Source: a plasmid. Taken from it: a DNA stretch of 64,000 nt. The DNA is taken from sequence record NZ_CP043850.1, one strand, 5' to 3'. A model generated the notes under the pieces. The model did no database searches, was not told the DNA's origin, and saw only the letters and a list, made by a program, of their open reading frames with translations. Below, one piece after another: positions 10,757 through 51,206 of this stretch. The number at the start of each line of letters is the position of its first letter. Positions within the stretch are counted from its first letter, which is position 1. A program made the position numbers and the translations under genes.

Positions 10757-10847
10757 GGCACGGGGGAAGGCGCGCCGGTTGTCGAGATGCAGCGAAGAGT
10801 TCACACGACGCGCGGTGAACTCTTCGCATATCAGGCGGGATCCGGTC
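10757..10847 (+). repeat. cassette-boundary repeat, A form, copy 1 (core GTTGTCGAGATGCAGCGAAGAGTTCACACGACGCGCGGTGAACTCTTCG, then GGCGGGATCCGGT); holds a perfect 12-bp stem / 10-nt loop hairpin at 10793..10826
   Basis: shared with loci at 30527, 33038, 49788 and, inverted, at 32879 and 51134. Confidence 0.8.
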
Positions 10848-11067
10848 GGCGTGAAATCTGGGTGTCCCGGTGGGCGCTCCCGCGCGCCCCAGGGCCCGCC
10901 AGAAACGTACGGGCGGCTGCCGCTCTGGCGGGTCGGTTGTGGCGAGTCATGTGGCGGGCGGACAGGGTCGGATGTGGCGCGCACGGCGCATGGCGGGGTT
11001 GTCAACGTCGGCCGAATATTGACCCCTTATCGTCGTTGAATTTTGACCCCCTCGAATTGATGTGTTG

Positions 11068-11846
11068 TTACTTGCCCGCGGGTTGTGCGGGGGTCTTGAG
11101 GAGCTCGCGGCGTGCCCTGGTGCGGTAGGAGTCCCCGCCGAGGGTGAGGACTTCCGCGTGGTGAACGAGTCGGTCGATCATCGCGGCCGCGACGATGTCG
11201 TCGGAGAAGATCTCACCCCATCTGCCGAAGGGCATGTTGCTGGTGAGCACGATCGAGCCTTGCTCGTAGCGGGACGCGATGAGTTGGAAGAACAGGTTCG
11301 CGGCGTCCGCGTCGAATGGCAGGTAGCCGACCTCGTCGATGATCAGCATCCGGTAGCGGCGGAGTCGTTTCAGCTCATGCTCGAGCCGGCCGGCTGCGTG
11401 CGCGGCCTGGAGTCGGCCAGCCCAGCCGGTCGCGGTATCGAACAACACCGGGTATCCAGCGTGCGCGGCTTTGATGCCGAGGCCGATCGCGAGGTGTGTT
11501 TTGCCGACACCGGGTGGGCCGAGCAGGATCACGTTCTCCGCTTTCGGGATGAACGTTGTCGTCGCGAGGTGAGCGAGGACATCGCGACGCAGCGAGGGCT
11601 GATGGTCGGCGTTGAAGTCGTCCAGGGTCTTCACCGCGGGGAAGTGAGCGCCCGCGATTCGCAGTGTCGTTCCGTTCGCTTCCCGGTCCGCGACCTGGCG
11701 TTACAGGACCGCGGTGAGGTATTCCTCGTGGGACCAGCCCTCGGTGCGGGCTTGATCGCCGAGGGTCTCCCAGACCCGGCCGATCGTGGGGGTCTTCAAC
11801 GCCCGGGTCAGGTATCCCATCGTCGCCGCGATCTCCGTTTCGGGCA
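11068..11846 (-). pseudogene. istB: istB (IS21 helper ATPase) inactivated by a nonsense mutation (TTACAG here versus TTGCAG in copy 2, near 11702), leaving a 188-aa ORF
   Basis: copy 2 encodes the intact 259-aa IstB with Walker A GPPGVGKTHLAIGLG; the only difference seen is one base. Confidence 0.8.
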
Positions 11847-13106
11847 TCAGAGGACCTCACCGGTTCGAGGATCGACAGGGAAATCGACGCCGAACAACTC
11901 GTCGTAGTCGGGCAGTTCCCGAAACACCACGCTGGCCGCTGGCTGCCCGCGATGGTGCAGTCGTTCTCGGTCGCGTTTCGCGGCGCTGAACGTGGAGCGC
12001 AGCCCCCTCGCGATCTCGACGTGGACAGGGTCGATGACGGTCGCGTGTTTCGCCCAACAGCGTTCGTGGTCAGCGACGGTGCGGCCATCGCAGATCACGA
12101 TCACTCGTGTCAGCGTGGCCGTCACATCCACCAGCCGCCCAATCACGCGAGGGTCAACGGAGTAGTCGTTGGCATCGATGCGGACGTAGTAGTCCCGCGC
12201 CAATCGGACCCGGTTTCGCAGCCCCGTCACCGGCGGCAGCGGCGGCAACACGGTCATCGCCTGCAGATCCCGCTCCACCACGTCGATAGGTCGCCCGCCC
12301 AGCGAGCGGATCGTGCGGGAGTTCGCCCGCGGGAGCCACTCCGCGAGTTGGCTGTTGAAACTGTCCGGTGACGCGAACGACCGCCCGGGCAGGAACGATG
12401 TCTCCATGTACTGGTTGTTGCGTTCGGTCATGCCCTTGAACTCCGGATCCCGCGGAGGGGCGAGCACGATCCTCGTCGCCAACGTTCCCGCGAACGCGGC
12501 CGCGGCCTGCGTGACAGTCCCCTTCCCCCCGATCGCGGCCTCACGATCCCAGACGAGCGTCTTCGAGACCCGCCCGACACGAGAGATCAGCTGCCACATC
12601 CCCGCGACCAGATCGCCCGCCTGCCGGGACGGGAGCATCACCGCGGACAGGAACCGGGAGAACGTCAACGTCATCACGAGCACCGGCAGCATCAACGCTT
12701 GCCCATGCCCGACAGGGATCCGCGGCTCCGGGAACCACAGATCCATCTGCGCGCTCTCGCCAGGAAGATGAATCAGACGATCCGCGGGATCGACCCCGGC
12801 ATACTCCGGACGAATCGTCCGGATCCGATCCTTCAGAATCGTGATCGAGTGTTCCCACCCGATCCGCTCCGCGATCACCGTCGCCGGCATCCTCGCATCC
12901 ACCACCAAGAGCTTGCGGATCTCGGGCTCCGCAGCGTCAACGAGTGACCCTTTCCCTGCCCGCTGATACGACGGCGGCGTCTCTGACGCCAACGCCGACC
13001 GCACCGTATTTCGCGCCACACCGAGCCGACGCACGATCTCCTTGATCGACACGCCCTCCGCCCGATGCAACCGCCTGATCTCTGCCCACTGTTCCAAATT
13101 GATCAC
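11847..13106 (-). CDS. istA: IS21-family transposase IstA
   Basis: 419 aa; N-terminal HTH; identical to copy 2. Confidence 0.9.
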   Translation of the reverse strand: MINLEQWAEIRRLHRAEGVSIKEIVRRLGVARNTVRSALASETPPSYQRAGKGSLVDAAEPEIRKLLVVDARMPATVIAERIGWEHSITILKDRIRTIRPEYAGVDPADRLIHLPGESAQMDLWFPEPRIPVGHGQALMLPVLVMTLTFSRFLSAVMLPSRQAGDLVAGMWQLISRVGRVSKTLVWDREAAIGGKGTVTQAAAAFAGTLATRIVLAPPRDPEFKGMTERNNQYMETSFLPGRSFASPDSFNSQLAEWLPRANSRTIRSLGGRPIDVVERDLQAMTVLPPLPPVTGLRNRVRLARDYYVRIDANDYSVDPRVIGRLVDVTATLTRVIVICDGRTVADHERCWAKHATVIDPVHVEIARGLRSTFSAAKRDRERLHHRGQPAASVVFRELPDYDELFGVDFPVDPRTGEVL

Positions 13107-13949
13107 CCTCCAAAGGATGCCCGGAAGGGGTCAAAATTCCCCGACGCTCAGGGGTCAGTATTCACGCGTCGTCGACAGCACCCGCTCGGAAAGCCACCCG
13201 TCGCTCCGCTTCTGTCGGCCGTCGCCGCGGAGGCTGCGGGCACGTTCGTCCTCGTGTTCGGAGTCATCGGAGCGGCGACCTTCTCCGCATCCTTTTCGAA
13301 GTCGGATGTCGCGGTGAACATCGGATTCCTCGGCGTCGCCTTCGCGCTCGGGCTCAGCGTGCTCGTCGGCGCCATCGCCTGGGGCCCCGTGTCGGGCGGC
13401 CACTTCAACCCTGCCGTCACGCTCGGATTGGCGACCGCCGGATTCTTCTCGTGGCGCCGCGTCCCGGCCTACATCGCGTCGCAGTTCGTGGGTGGGCTAC
13501 TCGCGTCCACCGCACTTGTTCTCGTTGCGGCGGGCACCAGCACGGAATTCCTGTCAGACGCTCGAAAGAGCGGATTCGCGTCCACCGGCTGGGGACCGCT
13601 CTCACCAAGCGGGGCCTCCTGGGAGGCGGCGTTCCTCATCGAGGCGGTCACCACGGCCGTGCTCATGGCGGTCGTCCTCGCCGTCTCCACTCGTCGCACG
13701 GACGCGACGCTCGCGCCGCTGGCCATCGGGTTCACGCTGACGGTGGCGGCGCTCGTCGCGATCCCGATCTCGAACGGCTCTTTCAACCCGGCCCGCTCGA
13801 TAGCGACCGCCGTCTACGGGGGCCCTGTCGCGCTCGAGCAGTTGTGGCTCTCGCTCGTCGCGCCAACCCTCGGCGCGGCGCTGGTCGGCCTCGTCGTGAC
13901 AGCGGTCCGCCACCTCGCGCCGCGAGCGAGGAGAAGCTCCTACATCTGA
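13065..13949 (+). CDS. MIP-family channel (aquaporin / glycerol facilitator); the first 38 codons lie inside the IS21 end and the native start appears lost
   Basis: two NPA boxes (HFNPAVT, SFNPARS); six TM helices; no ATG/GTG/TTG between the IS end (13178) and the conserved AAEAAGTF N-terminal motif. Confidence 0.7.
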   Translation: MQPPDLCPLFQIDHPPKDARKGSKFPDAQGSVFTRRRQHPLGKPPVAPLLSAVAAEAAGTFVLVFGVIGAATFSASFSKSDVAVNIGFLGVAFALGLSVLVGAIAWGPVSGGHFNPAVTLGLATAGFFSWRRVPAYIASQFVGGLLASTALVLVAAGTSTEFLSDARKSGFASTGWGPLSPSGASWEAAFLIEAVTTAVLMAVVLAVSTRRTDATLAPLAIGFTLTVAALVAIPISNGSFNPARSIATAVYGGPVALEQLWLSLVAPTLGAALVGLVVTAVRHLAPRARRSSYI

Positions 13950-13993
13950 GTGCGGTGCGTGTTCCATCCCGGAGATCCGGGACGGCGTGACGC

Positions 13994-14209
13994 TTATGCG
14001 GCCGCGTCGACGACCTTCGTCGCGCGGTATGTACTCACGGCGCGGAGGACGGCAGGTGTTGCATGCTGGACGACCCTCAAAGCGCCGGTCGCGATCTGGA
14101 GCCGGCGCTGCACGGCCGCGTCGGCAGCCATCTTCAGGCCGATCTCTATGCCACGTTCGATCCCAACGGCAACGCCGCGGTTGAAGCCGAGACCGTAAAC
14201 AGGACTTCC
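13994..14209 (-). CDS. small hypothetical protein (MGSPVYGLGFNRGVAVGIERGIEIGLKMAADAAV...)
   Basis: only the C-terminal 72 codons of ORF 13994..14539 look protein-like. Confidence 0.25.
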   Translation of the reverse strand, partial: GSPVYGLGFNRGVAVGIERGIEIGLKMAADAAVQRRLQIATGALRVVQHATPAVLRAVSTYRATKVVDAAA

Positions 14210-14301
14210 CATGAGTGCTCCCCAGATTGAGTGGTGCTGTCGAGCGTAGTGAGATCCGGGAGCGCCAGACCGTGAGGTGGCTGGGACTTCAGGCGGAATC
14301 G

Positions 14302-14709
14302 TCAGGCTGTCGGCGCATCCTCGTTCACCGACGGAGGCACCGGCCCACGAGCGGCACGTACGCCAGCCCTGTACGCGCGCATCTCCCGTCGCGCGAATCG
14401 CTGATGGACGAACCATTCCCGAATGGTTCGTCCCAGACGGCGGCGGCGGACGTCGTCGACAAACATCAGCCATCCCACCCGAACCGACCGTGCCCGCTGC
14501 GTGACCTTGTTGTCGGACGGGTCCGAGACGAGCAACCATCGTTGCACCTGCACGTCCGGGCTGGAGCGCGGCTCCGCGAGCTCGTCAACATGGTCTTCCA
14601 AAACCCCGACGATGACGTTGCGGCGTTGCTCCGGGTATGCCCATTCCCTCGTGACGCGTTGCGCGCGAGCGAGGGTGAATTCGTACTCCGTGCGCGCAAT
14701 CGGTTCCAT
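14302..14709 (-). CDS. hypothetical protein
   Basis: 135-aa ORF with protein-like composition; overlaps the 3' end of ORF 14585..15070. Confidence 0.35.
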   Translation of the reverse strand: MEPIARTEYEFTLARAQRVTREWAYPEQRRNVIVGVLEDHVDELAEPRSSPDVQVQRWLLVSDPSDNKVTQRARSVRVGWLMFVDDVRRRRLGRTIREWFVHQRFARREMRAYRAGVRAARGPVPPSVNEDAPTA

Positions 14710-15070
14710 GCCCGGTCGGCAGTGCGGGTAGCAACTGCTCCGCGGTGTGACCCAGCTTCCGGAGGAACGCCTCGACCTCGCCCCGCTGACGTTGCGCGCG
14801 AGGAGACGTCACGCGGTCACTCCACAATCGCACCGCGTCACCGTACTGACGGGCGAAGTCCGACCGCGCCAGCCCGTCTTCGCGGCCGGCGAGCGACAAC
14901 GCCGACACGGCGATGGCGAACTCGTCTCCGACAGACCGGTCGAGCTGGAAGTCACGATTGGAGCGAGCCTCGCGGCTGGCGTCGCGTGCGATGACCAATC
15001 CGACCAGAGCAAGGATCACCGACAGCAGAGACGCGATGACCTGGATCCAGGTCGCGAAGGCGTTGTCCAC
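14585..15070 (-). CDS. hypothetical membrane-anchored protein (N-terminal TM IQVIASLLSVILALVGLVIA); may be one frameshifted gene with 14302..14709
   Basis: 161-aa ORF; the C-terminal 40 aa look like out-of-frame junk. Confidence 0.3.
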   Translation of the reverse strand: MDNAFATWIQVIASLLSVILALVGLVIARDASREARSNRDFQLDRSVGDEFAIAVSALSLAGREDGLARSDFARQYGDAVRLWSDRVTSPRAQRQRGEVEAFLRKLGHTAEQLLPALPTGHGTDCAHGVRIHPRSRATRHEGMGIPGATPQRHRRGFGRPC

Positions 15071-15167
15071 AGACGAACAGTATCGTCAGGACGCCGCATT
15101 CTTCCTTCCAAGAATGCAGAAGAGGTGCACCCGGATCCCGGGTGCACCTCTTCTACTGCGCCGCTTC

Positions 15168-16004
15168 TTACTTCTGGATGAAGGCGAGGAGGTCAGGGTT
15201 GATGACCTCGGCGTGCGTGGTCAGCATGCCGTGCGGGTAGCCGGCGTACAGCTTCAGCTCAGAGTTCTGGAGGAGCTCGTGCTGCAGGAGCGCGGCGGCC
15301 TTGTAGGGAACGACCTGGTCGTCGTCGCCCTGCATGACGAGAACGGGGACCGTGATGGCCTTGAGGTCTTCGGTCTGGTCGGTCTCGGAGAAGGCCTTGA
15401 TGCCCTCGTAGTGAGCGAGCGCGCTGCCCGTCATGCCCTGACGCCACCAGTTCGCGACGACCGGCTCGGACACCTCGACACCGTCGCGGTTGAAGCCGTA
15501 GAACGGACCCGACGCCACGGCCTGGAAGAACTCGGCACGGTTGGCGGCGAGAGCGGAACGGAAACCGTCGAGGACCTCGATGGGCGTGCCCTCGGGGTTG
15601 CTGTCGGACTTCAGCATGATGGGAGGAACCGAGGAGACGAGCACGGCCTTGGCGACACGACCCTGGGGCTGACCGTACTTGGCGACGTAGCGAGCGACCT
15701 GGCCGCCGCCGGTGGAGTGGCCGATGTGGATGGCGTTCTGCAGGTCGAGGTGCTCGACGACGGCGTTCACGTCGCTGGCGTAGTGGTCCATGTCGTGGCC
15801 GGTGCTGATCTGCGACGAACGTCCGTGGCCGCGGCGGTCGCTGGCGACGACGCGGTAGCCCTTCGAGAGGAAGTAGAGCATCTGTGCGTCCCAGTCGTCG
15901 GACGACAGCGGCCAGCCGTGGTGGAACACGATGGGCTGGGCGTTCTTGTCGCCCCAGTCCTTGAAGTAGATCTCTGCGCCGTCTTCGGTGGTGATGTATC
16001 CCAT
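15168..16004 (-). CDS. alpha/beta-hydrolase of the non-haem chloroperoxidase / bromoperoxidase type
   Basis: start MGYITTEDGAEIYFKDWG..PIVFHHGWPLSSDDWD; nucleophile elbow GHSTGGG; SD-like AAGGA upstream; the ORF's upstream 29 codons judged not translated. Confidence 0.8.
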   Translation of the reverse strand: MGYITTEDGAEIYFKDWGDKNAQPIVFHHGWPLSSDDWDAQMLYFLSKGYRVVASDRRGHGRSSQISTGHDMDHYASDVNAVVEHLDLQNAIHIGHSTGGGQVARYVAKYGQPQGRVAKAVLVSSVPPIMLKSDSNPEGTPIEVLDGFRSALAANRAEFFQAVASGPFYGFNRDGVEVSEPVVANWWRQGMTGSALAHYEGIKAFSETDQTEDLKAITVPVLVMQGDDDQVVPYKAAALLQHELLQNSELKLYAGYPHGMLTTHAEVINPDLLAFIQK

Positions 16005-16181
16005 GATGAGTCCTTTGTCATGTCGTCGAACGAGCAAGCCCGCGCGACTGGTGGGTAGTTTGCGCCTCGACGATGTGGCGACTGCATTCACGGTAACTTT
16101 CGGGCGCCCGCGATGTCAACGTCGGCCGAATATTGACCCCTTATCGTCGTTGAATTTTGACCCCCTCGAATTGATGTGTTG

Positions 16182-16961
16182 TTACTTGCCCGCGGGTTGT
16201 GCGGGGGTCTTGAGGAGCTCGCGGCGTGCCCTGGTGCGGTAGGAGTCCCCGCCGAGGGTGAGGACTTCCGCGTGGTGAACGAGTCGGTCGATCATCGCGG
16301 CCGCGACGATGTCGTCGGAGAAGATCTCACCCCATCTGCCGAAGGGCATGTTGCTGGTGAGCACGATCGAGCCTTGCTCGTAGCGGGACGCGATGAGTTG
16401 GAAGAACAGGTTCGCGGCGTCCGCGTCGAATGGCAGGTAGCCGACCTCGTCGATGATCAGCATCCGGTAGCGGCGGAGTCGTTTCAGCTCATGCTCGAGC
16501 CGGCCGGCTGCGTGCGCGGCCTGGAGTCGGCCAGCCCAGCCGGTCGCGGTATCGAACAACACCGGGTATCCAGCGTGCGCGGCTTTGATGCCGAGGCCGA
16601 TCGCGAGGTGTGTTTTGCCGACACCGGGTGGGCCGAGCAGGATCACGTTCTCCGCTTTCGGGATGAACGTTGTCGTCGCGAGGTGAGCGAGGACATCGCG
16701 ACGCAGCGAGGGCTGATGGTCGGCGTTGAAGTCGTCCAGGGTCTTCACCGCGGGGAAGTGAGCGCCCGCGATTCGCAGTGTCGTTCCGTTCGCTTCCCGG
16801 TCCGCGACCTGGCGTTGCAGGACCGCGGTGAGGTATTCCTCGTGGGACCAGCCCTCGGTGCGGGCTTGATCGCCGAGGGTCTCCCAGACCCGGCCGATCG
16901 TGGGGGTCTTCAACGCCCGGGTCAGGTATCCCATCGTCGCCGCGATCTCCGTTTCGGGCAT
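16182..16961 (-). CDS. istB: IS21 helper ATPase IstB (intact)
   Basis: 259 aa; Walker A GPPGVGKTHLAIGLG. Confidence 0.9.
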   Translation of the reverse strand: MPETEIAATMGYLTRALKTPTIGRVWETLGDQARTEGWSHEEYLTAVLQRQVADREANGTTLRIAGAHFPAVKTLDDFNADHQPSLRRDVLAHLATTTFIPKAENVILLGPPGVGKTHLAIGLGIKAAHAGYPVLFDTATGWAGRLQAAHAAGRLEHELKRLRRYRMLIIDEVGYLPFDADAANLFFQLIASRYEQGSIVLTSNMPFGRWGEIFSDDIVAAAMIDRLVHHAEVLTLGGDSYRTRARRELLKTPAQPAGK

Positions 16962-18220
16962 CAGAGGACCTCACCGGTTCGAGGATCGACAGGGAAATCG
17001 ACGCCGAACAACTCGTCGTAGTCGGGCAGTTCCCGAAACACCACGCTGGCCGCTGGCTGCCCGCGATGGTGCAGTCGTTCTCGGTCGCGTTTCGCGGCGC
17101 TGAACGTGGAGCGCAGCCCCCTCGCGATCTCGACGTGGACAGGGTCGATGACGGTCGCGTGTTTCGCCCAACAGCGTTCGTGGTCAGCGACGGTGCGGCC
17201 ATCGCAGATCACGATCACTCGTGTCAGCGTGGCCGTCACATCCACCAGCCGCCCAATCACGCGAGGGTCAACGGAGTAGTCGTTGGCATCGATGCGGACG
17301 TAGTAGTCCCGCGCCAATCGGACCCGGTTTCGCAGCCCCGTCACCGGCGGCAGCGGCGGCAACACGGTCATCGCCTGCAGATCCCGCTCCACCACGTCGA
17401 TAGGTCGCCCGCCCAGCGAGCGGATCGTGCGGGAGTTCGCCCGCGGGAGCCACTCCGCGAGTTGGCTGTTGAAACTGTCCGGTGACGCGAACGACCGCCC
17501 GGGCAGGAACGATGTCTCCATGTACTGGTTGTTGCGTTCGGTCATGCCCTTGAACTCCGGATCCCGCGGAGGGGCGAGCACGATCCTCGTCGCCAACGTT
17601 CCCGCGAACGCGGCCGCGGCCTGCGTGACAGTCCCCTTCCCCCCGATCGCGGCCTCACGATCCCAGACGAGCGTCTTCGAGACCCGCCCGACACGAGAGA
17701 TCAGCTGCCACATCCCCGCGACCAGATCGCCCGCCTGCCGGGACGGGAGCATCACCGCGGACAGGAACCGGGAGAACGTCAACGTCATCACGAGCACCGG
17801 CAGCATCAACGCTTGCCCATGCCCGACAGGGATCCGCGGCTCCGGGAACCACAGATCCATCTGCGCGCTCTCGCCAGGAAGATGAATCAGACGATCCGCG
17901 GGATCGACCCCGGCATACTCCGGACGAATCGTCCGGATCCGATCCTTCAGAATCGTGATCGAGTGTTCCCACCCGATCCGCTCCGCGATCACCGTCGCCG
18001 GCATCCTCGCATCCACCACCAAGAGCTTGCGGATCTCGGGCTCCGCAGCGTCAACGAGTGACCCTTTCCCTGCCCGCTGATACGACGGCGGCGTCTCTGA
18101 CGCCAACGCCGACCGCACCGTATTTCGCGCCACACCGAGCCGACGCACGATCTCCTTGATCGACACGCCCTCCGCCCGATGCAACCGCCTGATCTCTGCC
18201 CACTGTTCCAAATTGATCAC
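16961..18220 (-). CDS. istA: IS21-family transposase IstA
   Basis: 419 aa; identical to copy 1. Confidence 0.9.
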   Translation of the reverse strand: MINLEQWAEIRRLHRAEGVSIKEIVRRLGVARNTVRSALASETPPSYQRAGKGSLVDAAEPEIRKLLVVDARMPATVIAERIGWEHSITILKDRIRTIRPEYAGVDPADRLIHLPGESAQMDLWFPEPRIPVGHGQALMLPVLVMTLTFSRFLSAVMLPSRQAGDLVAGMWQLISRVGRVSKTLVWDREAAIGGKGTVTQAAAAFAGTLATRIVLAPPRDPEFKGMTERNNQYMETSFLPGRSFASPDSFNSQLAEWLPRANSRTIRSLGGRPIDVVERDLQAMTVLPPLPPVTGLRNRVRLARDYYVRIDANDYSVDPRVIGRLVDVTATLTRVIVICDGRTVADHERCWAKHATVIDPVHVEIARGLRSTFSAAKRDRERLHHRGQPAASVVFRELPDYDELFGVDFPVDPRTGEVL

Positions 18221-18365
18221 CCTCCAAAGGATGCCCGGAAGGGGTCAAAATTCCCCGACGCTCAGGGGTCAGTATTCACGCGTCGTCGACAGGGGTCCCT
18301 CGCCACAAACGACCGAATCTGTCGAGTCAGTTGCAGAGCGCCGGGGTCAAGGGAACGACTCCGCC

Positions 18366-18932: not shown

Positions 18933-19084
18933 GGGCTCACTCTAGGGCCATCCCCGCGCCTGGCCCTCGGTGACCAAGCAGGGTGCAGGCGCATTGGCTG
19001 GGCATCTGGCTGAGTTGCAGCGGATGGCCCAACTGGCTTCGCCCACTGGCGCGTCTTCGGGACGACGCAAACGACCGAATCTGC

Positions 19085-39316: not shown

Positions 39317-39320
39317 GTCC

Positions 39321-42246: not shown

Positions 42247-42252
42247 TATGCC

Positions 42253-42274
42253 TACCCTATACCCCTAGGGGGTA
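42253..42274. promoter_or_regulatory. CsoR-type operator palindrome TACCCTATACCCCTAGGGGGTA, with a TTGACT -35-like box on the gene strand
   Basis: 7 bp upstream of the lipoprotein start codon; shares GTACTAGTCAA with the site at 49355. Confidence 0.6.
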
Positions 42275-42325
42275 CTAGTCAAGACTTGTGTGTTGTGTCG
42301 GTATGGATCAATCGGAAACCCCTTC

Positions 42326-42655: not shown

Positions 42656-43929
42656 GGCTGCTCCTCTCGGTCGGGTGCGGATCGGCGGTGAGAGCCGGTG
42701 GGAGGCTCGGGGAAGTCGTCAGCCTCTGCCGGGCCTGCGGCCGGGTGCGGGATGCGCAGGCGCAGGACGGTGGCGACGAGGCTGAGGGCGATGATGATCG
42801 CACCGAGGATCGTCATCGTCCCCGACAGGGTGAGCACCGGCACGAGCAATCCGGCGACGATGGTGGGCACGCCGAATGCCAGGTAGGCAACTGTGTAGAT
42901 CACAGCCATCACGGCGGCGCGTTCCGACGATGCCGTGTGGGGCATGAGTGTGCGCAGTACCCCGAGGAACGCTGTGCCGAACCCGGAACCGACGATCGCG
43001 ACCGAGGCGACATAGGCTGGGTAGGAACCGAGTGCGAGGGCGCCGATGCTCACTGCGGTGCCGAACGCCAGGGCACTGGTCGCATACAGGCTGATGGTGC
43101 GGGCGGAACGCCGCTGTAGGACGGAGGAGGCGGTGACTCCGGAGATCGCCAGTGCGAAGAGGACGATCCCAGCTTGGGTGTGCGTGGAGCCCCCAAGCTC
43201 ACTGCCGACGAGGTCGGCTCCGAGCGCAAGGAAGAGTCCGTTGGTCGCCCACCCGGCGATGATCACGGGCACTCCGACGGTGAACATGCGGCGTAGGTGC
43301 GGTGGCACGGTGAACCGCGGACGGAGGTCGCCACGTCGTATCTGGGTCTTCGGGACCAGTTCCGGTGTGCTCCACACGACCGTTGCCACGATGAGGAAGG
43401 CAAGCACGAGCGACCCGAAGACGGCAGTTGTCGGTTCGGAGGTGAGATCGAGGAGAAGTGCAGCACCGAGAGCCCCGGCCCCAAGGCCAATCATCGGGCC
43501 GATCGTGTTCCACAGGGCTGCGATGTTCCGATGTGACGGGGACTCGAAGTCGATCATCATCGCCGACAGCGCCGGGATCAGCAGACCCGCTGCGAGCCCT
43601 TGCAAGGCTCGGGCGACCAGGAGCGCCGCGAGGCTACCGGCGAACCAGAACATGGCCACGCTCAGCGCCAGCGCCAAAGAACCGGCGGCCACGACCGGAC
43701 GTCGGCCGACGTGGTCGGAGAGTGGTCCGAGGTAGAGCAGCGCGGCCAGGAGGGTGAAGGTGTAGACCGCGAACACGAGTGTGGTGGCGACGGGGATGAG
43801 TCCGAGCCGTTCGGCGATCTGGGGATAGAACAAGGACGGCGCGCTGGCAGCGGCCATCATGAGAATGGTCGCTGCCAGCGAGAGCACGAAGCCCCACCGT
43901 GGGATCTGCCTAATACAGTCTCCCGCCAT
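42652..43929 (-). CDS. MFS transporter
   Basis: 425 aa; 12 predicted TM helices. Confidence 0.7.
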
Positions 43930-43932
43930 TGC

Positions 43933-45078
43933 CTATGCCCGCACGCCGTGGAGCTGCTGCCCCCACTGGTAGACGGTGCCGACTGCGTCGATGCCAGTGA
44001 CGCCGACGACGATGCCGTCGATCTCGTGGCGGACGATGAACTCCTCACCCGCTTCCAGGTGGGCGTCTGCGCCGGCTGTGTACCCGACTCCGGAGATCAT
44101 CTGACCGTAGACCATTGCCATGTAAGGGCTGCGTGGCAGGTAGGCGCCCGGATCGTCGCTAACGCCGAGGTCGTGCAATGCGGCCCGCGCGGCATGCGCA
44201 CCCTGTGCGGCGGCGTCTTCCCAATGGTCGATGCGCCAGGCGTCCAGTGCTTCGTCGTGGTGCGTGGCCACGCCTCCGGCTGCGTAGACGTGGTCTGCCG
44301 CGGCGCGGAGGTGATCGTCGACGTCGATACCGTTCGTCCACGGTGACGGGGCTGCGGGCGTCGTGCCGAGCGCGAGGAGAAGGAAGTCAGCCACGACGGG
44401 ATTTCCGTCGTTGAGGGTGATGGTGACACCGGATTCTGTTTCGTCGACATGCTGGAGAGTGCGACCGAATCGGGCCTGCACCTTGGCGGCATGGTCGGCG
44501 GCGAGGCGCTCAGCCACGGGCGCCCCAAACGCTCCGACGCCGGGAACTGAACTGCGGGAGACCAGCGTGACCATGTGTCCGTCGGCTTGCAGAGACGAGG
44601 CCGTCTCGGCTGCGATGATTCCACCGCCGTAGATCGCTACCCGCGCGGGTCGCCCCAGTCCGGTCAGCAGCTTTCGGATGCCCAGGGCATCCCCCACGGA
44701 GTGAAGAGCGGTGACCCGCCCTTGTCCGGCGTCGTCGCCGCCGAACACGTCAGCGGGCAGGGAGCGGGGCATGCTCCCGGTCGCGACGATGAGCGCGTCG
44801 TAGGAGACTTGTGCGCCGGAGGTCAACTGGGCCTGCTTCGCCGAGGTATCGACTTTAAGCACGGTGTCGGCGATGACCTCGATCTGAGGCAGCGGGAGCT
44901 TGATCATCTCCGGCGGTGTCTGACCGAACGCGATTCCCTTGATGAGCATCCGCGTATAGGGCGTCTCCCCGGTGCGGGTCACCAGCGTCACCCGGACATC
45001 GTCGCGTGAGGCGAGAGTGCGGGCGGCTGCGGCCCCGGCTGCTCCCGATCCGAGGATGAGGACGTGCTGTGGGGTCAT
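43933..45078 (-). CDS. FAD-dependent pyridine-nucleotide-disulfide oxidoreductase (ferredoxin-reductase-like)
   Basis: two Rossmann dinucleotide motifs (ILGSGAAGAAAA and VAIYGGGIIAAE). Confidence 0.7.
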   Translation of the reverse strand: MTPQHVLILGSGAAGAAAARTLASRDDVRVTLVTRTGETPYTRMLIKGIAFGQTPPEMIKLPLPQIEVIADTVLKVDTSAKQAQLTSGAQVSYDALIVATGSMPRSLPADVFGGDDAGQGRVTALHSVGDALGIRKLLTGLGRPARVAIYGGGIIAAETASSLQADGHMVTLVSRSSVPGVGAFGAPVAERLAADHAAKVQARFGRTLQHVDETESGVTITLNDGNPVVADFLLLALGTTPAAPSPWTNGIDVDDHLRAAADHVYAAGGVATHHDEALDAWRIDHWEDAAAQGAHAARAALHDLGVSDDPGAYLPRSPYMAMVYGQMISGVGYTAGADAHLEAGEEFIVRHEIDGIVVGVTGIDAVGTVYQWGQQLHGVRA

Positions 45079-45124
45079 AGAAGAACTCCTGGATGCTGGT
45101 CGTGATCGAACTGATGCGCCGGCG

Positions 45125-45478
45125 TCAGGAGCGCACGAGGCGGGCGATGGCCTCGGACGCCTCGCCGAGCCTCTGCTCGCTGACTGGTCCGCCGGCGAGT
45201 GCGGCGTCGAGGACGCAATGCTTGAGGTGATCGTCGAGCAGGCCGAGGGCGACGTTTTCGAGTGCCCTGGTGACTGCGGAGATCTGGGTGAGGATGTCGA
45301 TGCAGTAGCGGTCCTCGTCGACCATCCGATCGATGCCGCGGATTTGGCCTTCCAGGCGGCGCAGGCGATTGCGGTACTTCGTCTTATCGCTGATGTATCC
45401 GTGGACGGACGCGTCGCCGTCGCCTCCTGCGGGGCAGGTGTCGAGATGGGTTTCGGTGGTGGGAGTCGTAGTGGTCAT
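45125..45478 (-). CDS. csoR: CsoR-family copper-sensing repressor (second copy)
   Basis: motif HGYISDKTKY..RLEGQIRGIDRMVDEDRYCIDILTQ..HLKHC. Confidence 0.85.
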   Translation of the reverse strand: MTTTTPTTETHLDTCPAGGDGDASVHGYISDKTKYRNRLRRLEGQIRGIDRMVDEDRYCIDILTQISAVTRALENVALGLLDDHLKHCVLDAALAGGPVSEQRLGEASEAIARLVRS

Positions 45479-45544
45479 GTCGGCTCGCTCCGATCAGGTG
45501 GCGGGGTGCCGCAGCGGTGCCGCGGCACCCCGCACGCTGGTGGA

Positions 45545-45853
45545 TTACGCCATGTTGGCGGCGTACTTGGCTGGGTCCGAATCGAACGCGGGCCCACAGC
45601 CAGCGCAGCAGAAGTAGTAGCGCTCATCCTCGAAGTCGCGGTAGAGGCCGGCGGCCTCGGCGGTCTTCTTGCTGACCGGGGTGCCGACCATGACCGGGCA
45701 GGTAGTCATGTCATCGGCGCCCCCGCCAAGAAGGTTCTCGCGTCCACCGTTCTCCACGGCCGGGTTGGTCTCGTTCGTGCTGCAGCAGCTGCTCATTCTC
45801 TGGTGTTCCTTCGTTATTGGATTCGTGTGGATGGGTGGGTTCTCGTACGTCAC
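45545..45853 (-). CDS. YHS-domain (TRASH-like) metal-binding protein
   Basis: motif [17 protein letters not shown]; overlaps the copA stop. Confidence 0.7.
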
Positions 45854-48120
45854 TTCGAGGCGACGCTCGTGAACCCGCGCAGGCGGAGGCTGTTGCCGAC
45901 GACGAAGACGCTGGAGAACGCCATCGCCGCACCTGCGAGCATGGGGTTGAGCATGCCGAGCGCAGCGACCGGGATCGCGGCGGTGTTGTAAGCGAATGCC
46001 CAGAACAGGTTGGTCTTGATCGTCGACAGGGTCTTCCTGGACAGGCGGATCGCGTCGACGGCGGCCCGCAGGTCACCGCGCACGAGCGTGATGTCGGAGG
46101 CCTCGATCGCGACGTCCGTGCCGGTGCCCATCGCGAGGCCCAGGTCGGCCTGCGCGAGCGCGGGGGCGTCGTTGACGCCGTCGCCGACCATCGCGACGAT
46201 CTTGCCCTCTTCCTGGAGGCGGGTGACGACGTCGACCTTGTCCTTGGGTAGCACTTCGGCGATGACCTCGTCGATGCCGACCTCGGACGCGATCTGGCGG
46301 GCCACGGCCTCGTTGTCACCGGTGAGCAGCACCGGGGTCAGGCCGATCTCCTTGAGCCCGCGGATCGCCTCGGCGCTCGTGGGCTTGACGGTGTCGGCGA
46401 CGACCAGGATGCCACGCGCAGCACCGTCCCAGCCGATCGCGACGACCGTCTTGCCCTCGCCCTCGGCCTGGGCCTTCGCCTGTGCGACCTCCGGAGAGAG
46501 CTTCTGCGACCAGTCCGCCAGCAGAGACTCGCGGCCGACGACGACCGGGGTCCCCTCGACGATGCCCTGCACGCCCTTGCCCTCGACATTGGCGAAGTCC
46601 TCTGGAGTAGGCAGCTGGCCGACTTCCTGGGTCGCGCCCTTGGCGATCGCCTGCGCAATCGGATGCTCGGAAGAGTCTTCCAGTGCACCGGCGAAACGCA
46701 GCAGCTCCGCACGATCCACACCGGGCTCAGTGATCACGTCGGTCAGAGTCATCTTGCCGCTGGTGACGGTGCCGGTCTTATCGAGCACGACGGTGTCGAC
46801 CTTGCGAGTGGACTCCAGCACCTCCGGACCCTTGATGAGGACGCCCATCTGCGCACCGCGCCCGGTGCCGACGAGCAGCGCGGTCGGGGTTGCCAGACCC
46901 AGCGCGCAGGGGCAGGCGATGACGAGCACGGCGACCGCTGCGGTGAACGCGGCGGCGACGGGGAACCCGCCTCCCAGCCAGGCGCCGAGGGTGATGAACG
47001 CGACGACGATGACGATCGGCACGAAGATGCCGGAGATGCGATCGGCCAGACGCTGCACCTCGGCCTTGCCGGTCTGCGCGTCCTCGACGAGCTTCGCCAT
47101 CTGTGCGAGCTGTGTGTCCGAACCCACACGAGTCGCCCGCACGACCAGGCGGCCGCCGGCGTTGACGGTGGCACCGGTGACCGAGTCGCCCTCGCGGACC
47201 TCGACCGGCACGGACTCGCCGGTGAGCATCGAGGCGTCCACCGCGGAGGAGCCGGAGGTCACGAGACCGTCGGTGGCGATCTTCTCGCCTGGACGGACGA
47301 TGAACTCGTCGCCGACCGCCAGCTCAGAGGTGGGGATCTTCACCTCTACGCCGTCGCGGAGTACGGCGACTTCCTTCGCGCCCAGCTCCAGGAGGGCGCG
47401 CAGCGCGGCCCCGGCCTGGCGCTTGGATCGCTTCTCGAAGTAGCGGCCGGCGAGGATGAACATCGTCACGCCCGCGCCGACTTCGAGGTAGATGTTCGCC
47501 GCGCCATCCGACGGAGCGATCGTGAACTCGAAGGGGTGCGTCATGCCGGGAGTGCCGGCAGTGCCGAGGAAGAGCGCGTAGAGCGACCAGAGCAGTGCGA
47601 CGGAGGTGCCCATCGAGATGAGCGTGTCCATCGTCGCCGCACCGTGCTTGAGGTTTGTCCACGCCGCCTTGTGGAACGGCCAAGCTCCCCAGATGATCAC
47701 CGGTGCGGCCAGGGCGAGTGAGGCCCACTGCCAATACGTGAACTGCAGCGCGGGGATCATCGCCATCGCGATTACGGGAACAGTGAGCACGATCGCGCCG
47801 ATCAGCCGATGCCGCAGCGAGGTGAGCTCACTGTCTTCCTCCTCCCCGGCCTCGGTCTCCGACGTGTTCGCCGTAGTGTCCTTGGGCTTGGGCAGTGCGG
47901 CCGTGTACCCGGTCTTCTCGACCTCGGCGACCAGCAGTGACGGATCGTAGCCGGCAGGCACGGTGACCTTAGCCTTCTCAGTGGCGTAGTTGACGGTGGC
48001 CGCGACGCCATCGAGCTTGTTCAGCTTCTTCTCGATCCGGTTCGCGCAGGAGGCGCAGGTCATCCCGCCGATCTCCAACTCGATGTCCGGCCCACCCGTT
48101 GGGGGCGCTGATGTGCTCAT
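45850..48120 (-). CDS. copA: copper-translocating P1B-1-type ATPase CopA
   Basis: HMA domain [15 protein letters not shown]; CPC motif; [13 protein letters not shown]. Confidence 0.9.
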
Positions 48121-48166
48121 CCTCTTCCTTCTTTCTCAGCTCTCGTGCGACGCCGGGCCCTGCGGG

Positions 48167-49108
48167 TCAGTGGCCGTCGGAATGCGAATCGTCTGTCTTC
48201 GTGCCGTCACCATGCTCGGCGTCGATCACGAACTCGGCGGTGTGCACCTGCCCGTCGACCTGGAAGTCCAGGTAGAGCAGGTAACGGTCGGCGGTCGGGG
48301 CCTCCGCTGCGAATCCGATGTCGGGTCCGGCCGTGTCCCCGGCCTGGGGCTGGTCGCCCTCGGCGTGGACGTGCAGGTAGGCGAGGTCACCCTCGCGCAG
48401 CGCCACTAAGTGGCCGAACGCGCCCAGGTAAGGCTCCAGCGTGGTCACCGGCTGACCGTCACGCTCGACCGAGATGGTGAGCTCGCTTGAGGTGCCCGCA
48501 GTGAGGTCGCCGTTGAGGGAGACGGTGTATCCGTCGACCTCGTCGGTGGGCTGCGCCTCGGTCTCGACAGGGGTGAAGTCGCCCGCGACCTCGATTGCGC
48601 GGGTGAGAGTGATGCCTTCGGCTTCCTCGCCCGCGGGTGTGAAGTCGGCGTACACGCGGTAGGTGCCCGCCTCGTCCCAGGTCCACGGCACCGACCAGGT
48701 GCCTGTGCTCGTGTCGAGTTCGGGGTGCACGTGCTGGAAGCCGGCGCCGTCGGTGCGCACGGCGATCAGGTGCAGGTCCTTCTCGTGCGCGGTGGTGTAT
48801 TCGGTCACCGGTTCGCCGGACTCGTCGAGGATCTGGAAGCTCAGGTCTCCATCCTCGCCTGCGGCCGTGGGGGCCTGGACCGGAGAGAGCACGAAGCCGT
48901 CCGCGCTTGCGGAGACCCCGTTCAGAGCGGGCTCCGCGGTTTCCTGCGCAGCGTCGCCGTGCCCTTCACCGTGTGCGTTCACGCCGCTTCCTTCTGCCCA
49001 TGCTGCTGCGAAGCTATCGGGAATGACGGCGCCGGCGAGGCCGAAGGCCCCGCCGAACGCCACCACCAACCCGGCCCCGTAGAGCGCGAGCCGTCCTCCG
49101 GCCTTCAT
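48167..49108 (-). CDS. secreted acidic protein with His-containing motifs, putative metal-binding (hypothetical)
   Basis: signal peptide; lies between copZ and copA in the same operon. Confidence 0.45.
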   Translation of the reverse strand: MKAGGRLALYGAGLVVAFGGAFGLAGAVIPDSFAAAWAEGSGVNAHGEGHGDAAQETAEPALNGVSASADGFVLSPVQAPTAAGEDGDLSFQILDESGEPVTEYTTAHEKDLHLIAVRTDGAGFQHVHPELDTSTGTWSVPWTWDEAGTYRVYADFTPAGEEAEGITLTRAIEVAGDFTPVETEAQPTDEVDGYTVSLNGDLTAGTSSELTISVERDGQPVTTLEPYLGAFGHLVALREGDLAYLHVHAEGDQPQAGDTAGPDIGFAAEAPTADRYLLYLDFQVDGQVHTAEFVIDAEHGDGTKTDDSHSDGH

Positions 49109-49317
49109 CAGACGCGCACCGCCGAGTAGCCGGCCTCCTCGACCGCCGCGAGGACCTTGGCGTCGTCGATCTCGCCCTCGGCGGTGACGTTGAGCTTGCC
49201 GGTCTGCGCGCTGACTTGGATGTCCTGGACGCCGGGGATCTCGCTGACCTCCTCGCGGATCGACATCTCGCAGTGGCCGCAGGTCATGCCCGTCACCTGG
49301 TAATCGTTCGAAGCCAT
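49108..49317 (-). CDS. copZ: copper chaperone CopZ (heavy-metal-associated domain)
   Basis: motif MTCGHCEMSIREEV. Confidence 0.85.
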   Translation of the reverse strand: MASNDYQVTGMTCGHCEMSIREEVSEIPGVQDIQVSAQTGKLNVTAEGEIDDAKVLAAVEEAGYSAVRV

Positions 49318-49354
49318 CAGGTGTCCTCCTTGTATGTCGGGTTGTACGTCGGGA

Positions 49355-49371
49355 GTACCCCTACCGGGTAC
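49355..49371. promoter_or_regulatory. CsoR-type operator palindrome GTACCCCTACCGGGTAC upstream of the copZ-copA-csoR operon
   Basis: dyad read in sequence; followed by the shared GTACTAGTCAA segment. Confidence 0.55.
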
Positions 49372-49787
49372 GTGTACTAGTCAAACGTATACCCATGTCA
49401 GGTATTCCGCAAGGAGGGAGGCGATCGTGTGAGCTGCATTGCGCAAGTGCTGCAAACAATGGTTGGAGCGTCCGAGGTGTGCCTTGTGGTGCACCGATGC
49501 TGCGGGGCGATCCGCTGGGTTCTGGCGCTGCGCGTCGGAGAGTAGTGACCCCTCGGCTCATCAGAACCGTGGACTGCCTTGCCGCATCGACGAAGGCAGC
49601 GAAGACTGGTACGAAACCGACTCGCGCCCAGACCCGTCAGTGAGTGGGGTCAACGCTCGGGAAGCGCGGTGCCGGAGACCCCAGGCAGGGGTCTCTGACG
49701 GTGACCCTGGTGAAGGCGCGCGGGCGCAGCAGCACGGGGACAGTCAGTGGCCGGGCCGATCCCGTGGAGGACGTCGTCACCCTCGGG

Positions 49788-49856
49788 GTTGTCGAGATGC
49801 AGCAAAGACTGCACGCGACTCGCCGTGAACCGTTCGGAGAGGGGGCGGGATCCGGT
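49788..49856 (+). repeat. cassette-boundary repeat, A form, copy 4 (GTTGTCGAGATGCAGCAAAGACTGCACGCGACTCGCCGTGAACCGTTCGGAGAGGGGGCGGGATCCGGT)
   Basis: ~75 bp homology with copy 1, including the GGCGGGATCCGGT tail. Confidence 0.75.
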
Positions 49857-49942
49857 GTGTGAGGGAGCCTGGCCGGACGCCCCTGCCGTGCTGGGGCGGG
49901 GAGCAGGCTGGGGTATCGAGTCGACAACTCTAGGCTGTCACC

Positions 49943-50299
49943 GTGACCACTGTTTTAGATCACCTCCGCGCTGATGACCGCGAGCACGTCGGGTACATCG
50001 AGATGACCGACGAAGGCCTCTTCATCCCCTACGACCTCCTGCGTCGGCGATGCGGTGAACCCATGGAGTCGACCGAGGCCGAAGAACTGCTTGACACCGT
50101 CGGTTTGCAGGCGTTGGGCGAACAGTGGCTGCTTCGCACCGAGGGTGACGCATGGGTGCCCGTGGGCATCCAGGAGTTCTCACGAGAGGCCGTCACAGTG
50201 GCGCCGCGGCTCGATGACAGGGCGGTGGCCAAGGCGCCGGATCTCACCGCGACGGTGATGTTGTCGTTGCCGACGGATCGGCTCCGTTCCGCCGAATGA
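49943..50299 (+). CDS. hypothetical protein
   Basis: 118-aa ORF. Confidence 0.4.
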   Translation: MTTVLDHLRADDREHVGYIEMTDEGLFIPYDLLRRRCGEPMESTEAEELLDTVGLQALGEQWLLRTEGDAWVPVGIQEFSREAVTVAPRLDDRAVAKAPDLTATVMLSLPTDRLRSAE

Positions 50300-50317
50300 G
50301 GCTGGGCGGTTCCCTTC

Positions 50318-51064
50318 TCAGGCGAAGATCTCCCGCAAGGGTGTCCACCCCACGGGAAGCGGCCCGCAGATGGCGGCTCGTTGCCTGTCTGCCTCATGGG
50401 ACCAGCCCTGAGCTTGTCCCGGGCTGCCGACCAGACCCCGGGCCAGGCGGAGTCCCACGTCCTCCAGGACGGCGTCCGGGGCGCTGCCCCGGCGCACTGA
50501 GGCGCGCACGCTCCAGGGTTCATCCGCCCAGCCACCCCCGCGCAGACTGCGGTAGTCGCCGTAGCGGGCGGGATCGGCGTAGTCCCAGCACCATTCCCAG
50601 ATGTTGCCGAGCATGTCGTGCAGACCGTGCGGGTTGGCTTTCTTCATGCCGACGGGCTGGGGGCCCTCAAGGTGGTCGAGGCTGGTCCAGGCGATGTCTT
50701 CAAGCGGCCCGTAGGTGGGCGAGGTCGTTCCGGCGCGGCAGGCGTACTCCCACTCGGCCTCGGTGGGCAATCGGTACCCGTCAGCGCTCGTGTTCCAGGT
50801 GACGGAGCGTCCGTCCCCAGCATGCGTGTAGGCCGGCTGCAGCTCTTCAGCATTGGATAGCTCGTTGCAGAGGTTGATGGTCTCGAACCATGTCAGAGGC
50901 GTGAGCGGGCGTCCGGTGCTCCGGTCACGGAGGGGGTGCACGGCCATCTCGAAGGGCTCCAGTTCCACATCCCGTGTGGTCCCGCGACGGGCGTCACGCA
51001 GGGTGATTTTTCCCGAAGACAGGGTGGCCATGGAGGGCTGGTTCATGGCGTCAGCGTCGCACAC
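50318..51064 (-). CDS. formylglycine-generating-enzyme (FGE/SUMF1)-family protein
   Basis: motifs WEYACRAGTTSPTYG, GLHDMLGNIWEWCWDY, RSLRGGGW. Confidence 0.8.
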   Translation of the reverse strand: MCDADAMNQPSMATLSSGKITLRDARRGTTRDVELEPFEMAVHPLRDRSTGRPLTPLTWFETINLCNELSNAEELQPAYTHAGDGRSVTWNTSADGYRLPTEAEWEYACRAGTTSPTYGPLEDIAWTSLDHLEGPQPVGMKKANPHGLHDMLGNIWEWCWDYADPARYGDYRSLRGGGWADEPWSVRASVRRGSAPDAVLEDVGLRLARGLVGSPGQAQGWSHEADRQRAAICGPLPVGWTPLREIFA

Positions 51065-51133
51065 GGGCTGACTGGAGAACCACGAGCTGCACCCGGACAG
51101 GGTTCAACTGTCAATACCTAAGTGGCTCGTGGT

Positions 51134-51206
51134 CGTATGAAACATATTTGCGCGTTTGTGAAATCTTCGCTGCATCTCGACAGGTGTCCATGCCAGAACC
51201 GGCGCC
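51134..51206 (-). repeat. cassette-boundary repeat, B form, copy 5 (CGTATGAAACATATTTGCGCGTTTGTGAAATCTTCGCTGCATCTCGACA..CCGGCGCC)
   Basis: inverted relative to the A copy at 49788; reverse complement shares the core and the GGCGCCGGTT segment with copy 1. Confidence 0.8.

Follow-up and report, generated by a model that had tools for sequence, protein, structure and literature searches.

In a 64,000-nucleotide stretch of plasmid DNA from sequence record NZ_CP043850.1 (the window), we describe a family of short repeats that we judge, with a probability of about 0.8, to be the terminal sequences of a subfamily of actinobacterial Tn7-like transposons, the units they delimit in the window being cargo-only derivatives of such elements. 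This assignment is drawn from the TGT boundary at which homology between copies ends, from 5-bp target duplications, from empty sites, and from the Tns machinery present in relatives that share the same terminus. The 40-kb accessory region of the window can be read in this light as two adjacent transposase-less Tn7-like units that carry drug-modifying enzymes, metal pumps and phage defence and that would lie side by side, each running from an A end to a B end, between the transfer genes and an FtsK-like gene of a Micrococcus-type linear plasmid. We refer to these units as E1 (10780-32999) and E2 (33040-51182). An initial annotation of the window had proposed that the repeats might be the ends of a non-autonomous cassette system, recombination sites, or a shared leader or regulatory module. 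The first of these proposals is essentially right, given the 5-bp duplications, the empty sites and the break of homology at TGT, and the bracketed segments lack any matching transposase.

Repeat copies and the boundaries they mark

The repeat family is real, with seven copies of the core TGTCGAGATGCAG(C/T)GAAGATTTCA where chance predicts none. When up to three mismatches are allowed, the core TGTCGAGATGCAGYGAAGATTTCA is found at 10780(+), 33040(+), 49790(+, with 3 mismatches), 32938(-), 32999(-) and 51182(-); shuffled sequences (n = 100) predict no occurrence of this 24-nt core, against the six in the window. A seventh, degenerate copy at 30528(+) was recovered as a member of repeat family D8. 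The coordinates given in the initial annotation were 2 nt early, having included the GGT/TGT ahead of the true TGT terminus. Its division of the copies into two forms also stands: plus-strand copies are of form A and minus-strand copies of form B, the two having about 26 nt from the TGT in common and diverging beyond. The tandem duplication that it described at the B end is exact, with a unit of 61 nt (32876-32936 and 32937-32997) rather than 60 bp.

Every copy opens with TGT, and homology between independent copies stops exactly there. Copy 1, at 10780, is 95-99% identical to its counterparts at loci L098 and L010 (L010_1284) for 220 nt inward of the TGT, while the three outward flanks are unrelated to one another. 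Likewise, the flank beyond the TGT at 51182 is unrelated to those of L059, L141, L143 and L153, and the metagenome contig L153 carries 2,541 nt that are 100% identical to window positions 48643-51183 and diverge exactly at the TGT.

The target-site duplications that the initial annotation had suggested looking for are present. Perfect 5-bp repeats, each expected by chance about once in 1,000, flank eight insertions, one of which is in the window: GGTGT at 33040/51182. The others are CGATG around a 25.4-kb element of Gordonia pGKT2 (547/25912), ACAGC around a 983-bp element (L125), GCTGC around a 1.9-kb element that follows dnaB (L072), ACATC around a 4.5-kb element (L088), GCTCC around the 7.3-kb element of pLMA7, GCCAC around the pCW.Ay element, measured at its outer B end, and GCCGG around a 1.9-kb insertion in pJD12 (L129 2382-4267), which has a B end only. 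The pJD12 insertion starts within the apparent 3' end of a helix-turn-helix gene, and its form suggests that it is one-ended or truncated. Variable presence among related plasmids, also proposed as a check, was observed as well, since pCW.Ay and pJD12 are uninterrupted and carry a single GCTCC at the point of the pLMA7 insertion (100% identity over 50-72 nt). No empty site corresponding to the insertions of the window itself was found among the sequences compared, since the window backbone shares only about 70% identity with known plasmids.

These boundaries bear directly on the idea that the copies are site-specific recombination sites, of the integron attC or tyrosine-recombinase att kind, that exchange cassettes. 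The arrangement is indeed cassette-like, and tyrosine recombinase genes adjoin copies in Rhodococcus pDF02 and Gordonia pGKT2; we therefore considered an integron-like system and rejected it, because the 5-bp duplication of pGKT2 places its integrase outside the element. Furthermore, 5-bp duplications of unrelated sequence are a signature of DDE transposition and not of conservative recombination, no integrase is found at the window copies, and no fold is conserved among them. This option of the initial annotation is unsupported and, in our view, hardly credible.

Similarly, we consider it highly improbable that the repeats are a shared promoter, operator or 5' leader (leader peptide or attenuator) upstream of accessory operons. 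All copies are intergenic and point into adjacent genes, B ends carry CTTGAC(A/G) about 65-75 nt inside the terminus, and several cargo genes are of resistance type (GNAT, methyltransferase and kinase in the window; ABC-F in relatives). However, no Rfam family matches at the copies, a consensus promoter scan was empty, and neither of the two features proposed for such a module is conserved. Copy 1 does contain the hairpin (13 bp, z = -4.4), explained by a near-perfect inverted terminal site at +33, which forms the first inverted pair, but all other copies fold no better than shuffled sequence (z between -1.5 and +0.7). The short peptide thought to be encoded by the copies is interrupted in the B copies at 32938 and 32999, which read ATG CAG TGA and stop at codon 3. 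Moreover, neither 5-bp duplications nor empty sites would be expected from a leader, nor would homology that ends at TGT. A WhiB7-type promoter or antibiotic-inducible leader, suggested by the neighbouring GNAT, methyltransferase, kinase and ABC-F genes, was rejected on the lack of an AT-rich/-35 arrangement, together with the empty promoter scans and the unconserved peptide and hairpin. A promoter inside the right end may nevertheless exist as a secondary feature, as it does in Tn7.

Transposition machinery of autonomous relatives

The initial annotation stated that the repeats match no known terminus and named, as an outcome that would speak against it, that the copies might prove to be fragments of one known family. 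The latter is most probably the case: the copies are ends of Tn7-like transposons, whose autonomous relatives encode a protein of the TnsA_like_Actin family, a TnsB-like DDE protein, TniB and TniQ. Reading inward from one terminus, the pGKT2 element carries a gene for a TnsA-like protein, a DDE transposase gene interrupted by an IS3, tniB and then defence cargo. Its TnsA matches the NCBIfam model TnsA_like_Actin (NF033179) with 126 bits against a cut-off of 110, and its TniB matches PF05621 at 1e-15; a Gordonia relative has an intact DDE protein of 730 aa, whose best solved relatives are TnsB proteins (E = 5e-8). At loci L005, L006, L061, L099 and L105, tnsA lies 0.8-4 kb inside the terminus and reads inward.

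Homologues of the TnsA of Phycicoccus (Micrococcales) led us to contigs L159-L162, which share the order dnaB, right end, type I restriction-modification (R-M) genes, TnsA-TnsB-TniB-TniQ-x-x-TniQ and cargo, with a TnsA of 249 aa, a TnsB of 731, a TniB of 355, TniQ proteins of 470 and 554 aa, and two small open reading frames (ORFs) between the latter. The TnsA of Phycicoccus L099 matches that of pGKT2 at 1e-42 and other actinobacterial TnsA-like proteins at 1e-12 to 1e-16; by sequence similarity, the TnsA proteins tied to this terminus form a subgroup of their own. A Tn7-like element on Arthrobacter pJ349-116 was considered as a possible Micrococcaceae helper and set aside, as it lacks this terminus. 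Clustering of ORFs from 125 loci revealed no transposase conserved just inside the ends; DnaB was found just outside them instead.

It is very unlikely that the repeats are termini of another family, for example of IS21-like elements or of Tn5053/Tn402-like TniABQ elements, which have no TnsA. Inverted repeats of Tn402 and Tn5053 start with TGTCG and give 5-bp duplications, the IS21 copies of the window start with TGTC and carry repeated TTGAC motifs, and Pfam recognises only TniB, not TnsC, in the relatives. Against this, the bounded autonomous elements carry, beside the DDE gene, a TnsA-like endonuclease that is absent from Tn5053 and IS21; among solved structures, TnsB proteins come closest to the DDE protein, and the IS21 ends in the window differ in sequence from the repeats.

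The autonomous relatives encode TnsA, a TnsB-like DDE transposase, TniB as the equivalent of TnsC, and two TniQ target selectors. Their insertions lie a few nucleotides past the stop codon of dnaB, in a single orientation and with a 5-bp duplication. Each end opens with 5'-TGTCGAGATGCAGCGAAGA, followed by lineage-specific subterminal repeats as putative TnsB-binding sites. The A end would comprise the terminal site and an inverted site about 70 nt in, and the B end would be the one nearest to tnsA that faces the target gene.

Unit E2

E2 (33040..51182) is an 18,143-bp cargo-only Tn7-like element with no tns genes and an intact 5-bp target-site duplication, GGTGT, at 33035..33039 on the left and 51183..51187 on the right. 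Its A-form terminus, of left-end type (33040..33182, +), is of the TGTAGAG variant, has the terminal site repeated in inverted orientation at +70, and is common, over about 143 nt, to pLMV7 (L001), M. antarcticus (L010) and M. luteus (L024). The TGTAGAG variant also ends the pLMA7 and pCW.Ay elements, both of which have verified target duplications. The B-form terminus, of right-end type (51120..51182, -, with its TGT at 51182), is 100% identical over 49 nt to the B end of pLMV7. Across 50 nt, it also matches at about 80% both the end nearest to tnsA in Phycicoccus L099 and the dnaB-proximal ends of Micrococcales loci. The two arms of E2 are 96% complementary (repeat family I11), and the B end with the FGE cargo recurs at 95-100% identity beside at least five different outward flanks.

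The cargo of E2 comprises a CDF transporter, an IS481-like insertion sequence (IS; 35669-36943), a tRNA-Cys, two P-type ATPases, an MFS transporter, an oxidoreductase, a DUF1541 gene, hypothetical genes and an FGE-family gene. The tRNA-Cys gene (GCA; 37259-37332, -) is located between the IS481-like element and a CMD-family gene, apparently on the plasmid. In pLMA7, pCW.Ay and pLMV7, an identical gene for a 312-aa AbiTii-family protein (WP_127435182.1) lies just inside the A end (L127 2706-3644, L128 14470-15408 and L002 5257-6195, respectively). It had been considered as a transposition protein on account of its place beside A ends and was identified as AbiTii cargo; no homologue of it is found at window positions 48167-49108.

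As the initial annotation had it, the opposed pair that it placed at 49788/51134 encloses a hypothetical gene and an FGE-family gene (49943-51064, by Pfam). The mobile unit that can be demonstrated is not such a compact cassette, as the intact duplication flanks the 18.1-kb segment 33040-51182 instead and the inner A copies are degenerate. The internal A-type copy of E2 (49790..49856, +; repeat family D5) has 3 core mismatches and is of a CTGCAC variant. Its flank and that of 51182 read GGGGT and GGTGT, identical at 4 of 5 positions and not a clean duplication, and homology with L153 runs across it.

Unit E1

E1 (10780..32999, 22.2 kb) consists of an A end, cargo and a doubled B end, and has no tns genes. 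Its A-form terminus, of left-end type (10780..10999, +, with TGT at 10780), has inverted sites at about +33 and +69 and is interrupted at 10999/11000 by an IS21 insertion. The segment from about 10769/10776 to 10999 matches Micrococcus lacusdianchii (L098, 98.7%) and M. antarcticus (L010, 95%). The doubled B-form terminus, of right-end type (32876..32999, -), combines a complete end whose TGT is at 32938 with an exact 61-nt copy whose TGT is at 32999.

By Pfam and PADLOC, the first part of the cargo comprises an IS21 composite (MIP channel and hydrolase), a GNAT gene, IS256 and a resolvase; the second comprises an AriA/GajA-like OLD ATPase, a type IIG R-M gene and a methyltransferase-GNAT-GNAT-kinase operon. 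The composite transposon is formed by IS21-family copies at about 11000-13182 and 16114-18291, which share a 300-nt exact repeat and matching inverted repeats and bracket the genes for the MIP channel and an alpha/beta hydrolase; it sits 220 nt inside the E1 A end. At 24152-29261, the OLD-family ATPase gene (best PADLOC model AriA, also GajA-like; 50% GC) adjoins an MmeI-like type IIG R-M gene, and the two are recently acquired defence cargo of E1. In addition, a 44-nt inverted repeat (82%) links 10672-10715, in the backbone after the 268-aa ORF described below, with 21391-21434, immediately after IS256, which hints at an inversion or at a duplicated backbone fragment inside E1.

The inner A copy of E1 (30528..30560, +; repeat family D8) has the sequence TGTCAAGACGCGGCGAAGATCGCAC and is a degenerate relic of an A-type end. 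With the B end it forms the opposed pair that the initial annotation placed at 30527/32879, which does enclose the methyltransferase-GNAT-GNAT-kinase block (30609-32800, minus strand, by Pfam). Since homology crosses 30528 on both sides in M. antarcticus (L103) and in metagenome contig L153, this copy is not a current boundary, and the pair 30528/32938 has no 5-bp duplication. About 35 nt to the left of 10780 resemble the 40-nt spacer between E1 and E2 (33000-33039; GGGCAC..GGGAAGGCG..GGT|TGT), and the A ends of both units therefore lie at equivalent positions of a duplicated and diverged target segment. To judge from this resemblance, the arrangement of E1 and E2 may reflect recombination between two plasmids, both with an insertion at the hot spot.

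End architecture and possible accretion of ends

The three Micrococcus-type elements with a verified duplication all have one A end and one B end. In the A ends at 10780 and 33040 and in the distal (left) end of pGKT2, an inverted copy of the terminal site lies about 70 nt inside, and an inverted site at about +70 occurs in left-type ends of four lineages, above shuffle expectation. By these features, and by the similarity of the window B end to tnsA-proximal and dnaB-proximal ends, A is the left-end type and B the right-end type. B ends in turn contain the candidate repeats TTTCACAAACG / GTTTCATACG.

Stuttered right ends, in which a terminal fragment of 14-160 nt directly precedes a full end in the same orientation, are common. 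Besides the window (32876-32999), we found them at L127 9597/9678, L128 ~3856/4016, L082 678/756, L153 3412/3431 and L159 2195-2260; the directly duplicated portion of the right end, partial or complete, measures 81 nt in pLMA7, 160 nt in pCW.Ay, 78 nt in L082, 19 nt in L153, and 18 and 40 nt in L159. Additionally, pairs of ends stand head to head, 2, 4 or 5 bp apart, at about 20 or more loci. Both arrangements suggest that insertion occurs next to, or within, ends already in place, contrary to the target immunity of Tn7. In this regard, the doubled B end of E1 could have originated when a like element inserted into a resident right end and recombination followed. The inner A copies, at 30528 and 49790, are the most degenerate of all and look like relic or fossil left ends that may have been kept when units fused. 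It is tempting to hypothesize that successive insertions, beside resident ends or into them, left the inner copies and the doubled B end behind as scars.

Target sites

The dnaB stop codon is followed by the terminus at a distance of 3-43 nt (mostly 3-8) in 17 loci, which come from many actinobacterial genera and include Mycobacterium lepromatosis. The end next to dnaB is of the right type, which is also the tnsA-proximal type, as with Tn7 at glmS. Examples are L159 2190-2330, L036, L054, L091, L093 and L105; the dnaB gene at such sites often contains an intein. From its position, the 3' end of dnaB looks like a Tn7-like attachment site.

A different site is used on the plasmids. Upstream of copy 1, the window contains a VirB4-like gene (3602-6166), an M23/NlpC-P60 peptidase gene (8031-9797) and the 268-aa ORF (9794-10600), and copy 1 directly follows these transfer genes, as the initial annotation had noted. 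On the other side of the accessory region lies a plasmid backbone gene of the FtsK/SpoIIIE family (51217..53640, +, by Pfam), outside the element and marking the hot spot. The linear plasmids pLMA7, pCW.Ay and pJD12 have the synteny M23 peptidase, hypothetical gene (homologue of 9794-10600), variable A...B region, FtsK, with the A end of the variable region on the left and the B end on the right. This gene order is also seen in the window, on a backbone that has diverged (~70% nucleotide identity). In the plasmids, four or more insertion sites lie within about 115 nt, with insertion points at 0, +45, +67 and +113 nt of one intergenic stretch, the B end always facing FtsK, and these A...B insertions in the same stretch of related plasmids would be independent of each other. 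The interval between the transfer genes and the FtsK-like gene is thus an insertion hot spot common to Micrococcus linear plasmids. One of the two TniQ proteins may direct insertion to this plasmid site.

A second, unrelated repeat family is present further along the backbone, at 55570-62330. Its core, GGGGACGTGTCG, occurs in 5-7 copies of 31-99 nt spaced by ~280-710 nt in a region of 70-75% GC with strong GC skew. Copies on the minus strand lie just upstream of small paralogous ORFs (e.g. 61224-61712 and 61835-62287), and the repeats may serve backbone genes as a common promoter or operator.

Occurrence of the terminus in Actinomycetota

The core occurs in multiple copies on the Micrococcus linear plasmids pLMV7, pLMA7, pJD12 and pCW.Ay, and also on Nocardioides, Rhodococcus and Gordonia plasmids. 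An exact scan with TGTCGAGATGCAGYGAAGA, with one genome per species, returned at least 120 loci, nearly all in Actinomycetota; the taxa among the matches listed include Mycobacterium (with M. lepromatosis), Rhodococcus, Gordonia, Nocardioides, Micrococcus and many Dermatophilaceae and Intrasporangiaceae. Aligned from the TGT, the matches are identical over the first 19-21 nt, an invariance that for the first 19 nt is partly built into a scan demanding the exact pattern, and beyond that point they are lineage-specific and internally repetitive. In Mycobacterium, for instance, the subterminal repeats are GATTGACAAG ... CTACTTTGACAAA ... and, inverted, CTTGTTAATCTTCGTTGCA. Small relatives without tns genes include L082 (179 bp), L071 (237 bp) and L125 (983 bp), and two tns-less mini-elements, L125 and L072 (1.9 kb), have perfect duplications.

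In a more speculative extension, which we regard as possible but doubtful, the near-invariant 19-21-nt terminus would serve Tns sets that are about 40% identical, which would permit cross-mobilisation, immunity would be lacking, and ends would accrete at two sites read by TniQ. If this is true, one terminus spans the range from Mycobacterium, including M. lepromatosis, to Micrococcus, and cargo-only units are cross-mobilised between lineages. Preferential insertion beside or inside resident right ends would then build islands by accretion, and there would be dedicated sites, the dnaB 3' end on chromosomes and the region upstream of an FtsK-like transfer gene on linear plasmids, with one TniQ for each.

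Mobility of the window units

Several observations weigh against the assignment of the repeats to Tn7-like transposons and of the window units to their mobile derivatives, besides the built-in share of the terminal invariance just mentioned. No tns homologue is found anywhere in the 64-kb window by Pfam or tblastn, and this is the reason for regarding E1 and E2 as cargo-only, non-autonomous derivatives. Nor do the Micrococcus plasmids of PLSDB contain a TnsB homologue (tblastn with pGKT2 TnsB as query, E < 1e-10) or a TnsA homologue (with Phycicoccus TnsA as query), and a helper is therefore hypothetical for this host. The flanks of E1 show no 5-bp duplication (CCGGT versus TGGGC), both small inner cassettes lack a clean one, and about half of the plus/minus end pairs at other loci are also without one; part of the mosaic may consequently be the product of homologous recombination between ends rather than of transposition. 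The pJD12 insertion has a duplication and an unrecognisable left end. The B-end repeats were seen by eye and give a weak signal, and the subterminal repeats are putative TnsB-binding sites by their architecture.

Some of these observations would also fit window copies that are Tn7-like ends and yet inert fossils, with modules shuffled by homologous recombination between ends of ~60-140 bp and by IS activity. Neither the window nor Micrococcus plasmids carry tns genes, E1 and the inner pairs are without duplications, a conserved block surrounds the degenerate copy at 30528, and the swapped module order in L153 is also producible by recombination. Even so, we find this unlikely. E2 has a perfect duplication and arms that match at 96%, the tns-less pLMA7 and pCW.Ay elements have perfect duplications and matching empty sites exist, the FGE-type B end stands in at least five unrelated flanks at 95-100% identity, and tns-less mini-elements of 983 bp and 1.9 kb (L125 and L072) have perfect duplications too. 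Our preferred explanation is still that the window units are cargo-only Tn7-like derivatives, presumably moved in trans by Tns machinery elsewhere in the host, now or recently.

Comparison with known systems

Actinobacterial Tn7-like transposons are a large, computationally catalogued clade with a Micrococcales sub-community and are experimentally uncharacterised (Benler et al. 2021, PMC8649781). The name Tn7706 has recently been given to one in Rhodococcus erythropolis (PMC12915292). The elements described here resemble this clade in host phylum, TnsA model and plasmid-borne copies (PMC8649781, NF033179, PMC12915292). Neither of the two papers (PMC8649781, PMC12915292) gives these end sequences or the dnaB attachment site, and we found no description of the ends, the dnaB attachment site or the Micrococcus plasmid hot spot in the searchable literature. 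Papers on pLMA1 and linear plasmids note variable gaps and many repeats, not these elements. In Micrococcus linear plasmids, "variable gaps between conserved blocks" have been reported (PMC11707576), which the recurrent hot spot explains. The details added here are the end sequences of an experimentally uncharacterised clade, a probable dnaB attachment site and a Micrococcus plasmid hot spot. Knowledge of the end sequences eases boundary calling and cargo surveys in Actinomycetota, and the A and B ends together offer a defined substrate for reconstituting a Gram-positive, high-GC Tn7-like system.

With Tn7 and Tn7-like elements, the family shares 5'-TGT...ACA-3' termini, a 5-bp target duplication, left and right ends that differ and carry putative subterminal binding repeats, and, in the autonomous relatives, a tnsA-tnsB-tnsC(tniB)-tniQ operon reading inward from the right end. 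It also shares orientation-specific insertion immediately behind a conserved essential gene (glmS in the case of Tn7, dnaB in this family), a pair of target selectors, and cargo rich in defence and resistance genes; the metal, drug and defence cargo of the window is typical of Tn7-like elements (PADLOC; Benler et al. 2021, PMC8649781). In contrast to Tn7, the end sequence is unrelated, the window copies lack tns genes, the plasmid hot spot lies upstream of an FtsK-like gene, and insertions accumulate at resident right ends, which Tn7 target immunity would normally prevent.

As in mobile insertion cassettes (MICs) and miniature inverted-repeat transposable elements (MITEs), DNA without a transposase lies between ends that belong to an autonomous element, and the family includes small versions; the window units differ in being 18-22 kb long, with many genes, nested IS and asymmetric ends. 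E2 and the pLMA7 and pCW.Ay elements fit the definition of a MIC, having passengers, the ends of an autonomous element and a target duplication. MITEs are non-coding, shorter than ~0.6 kb and present in many near-identical copies, whereas the window units are coding and measure 1.4-22 kb; nor are these units integron cassettes with attC sites, as the fold is unconserved, duplications are present and no integrase is found in the window.

A functional parallel is provided by class 1 integrons and tni-defective derivatives of Tn402/Tn5053. These cargo carriers retain the inverted repeats at both ends, depend on transposition functions supplied in trans and target particular plasmid sites; transposase-less derivatives with two ends are well known in the related Tn402 lineage and as MICs. 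Tn402 lacks TnsA and uses a resolvase, and neither integron integrase nor attC is present here; the resemblance is thus one of function and not of membership. The window units belong to a kind of mobile element that is essentially known and are not a new kind.

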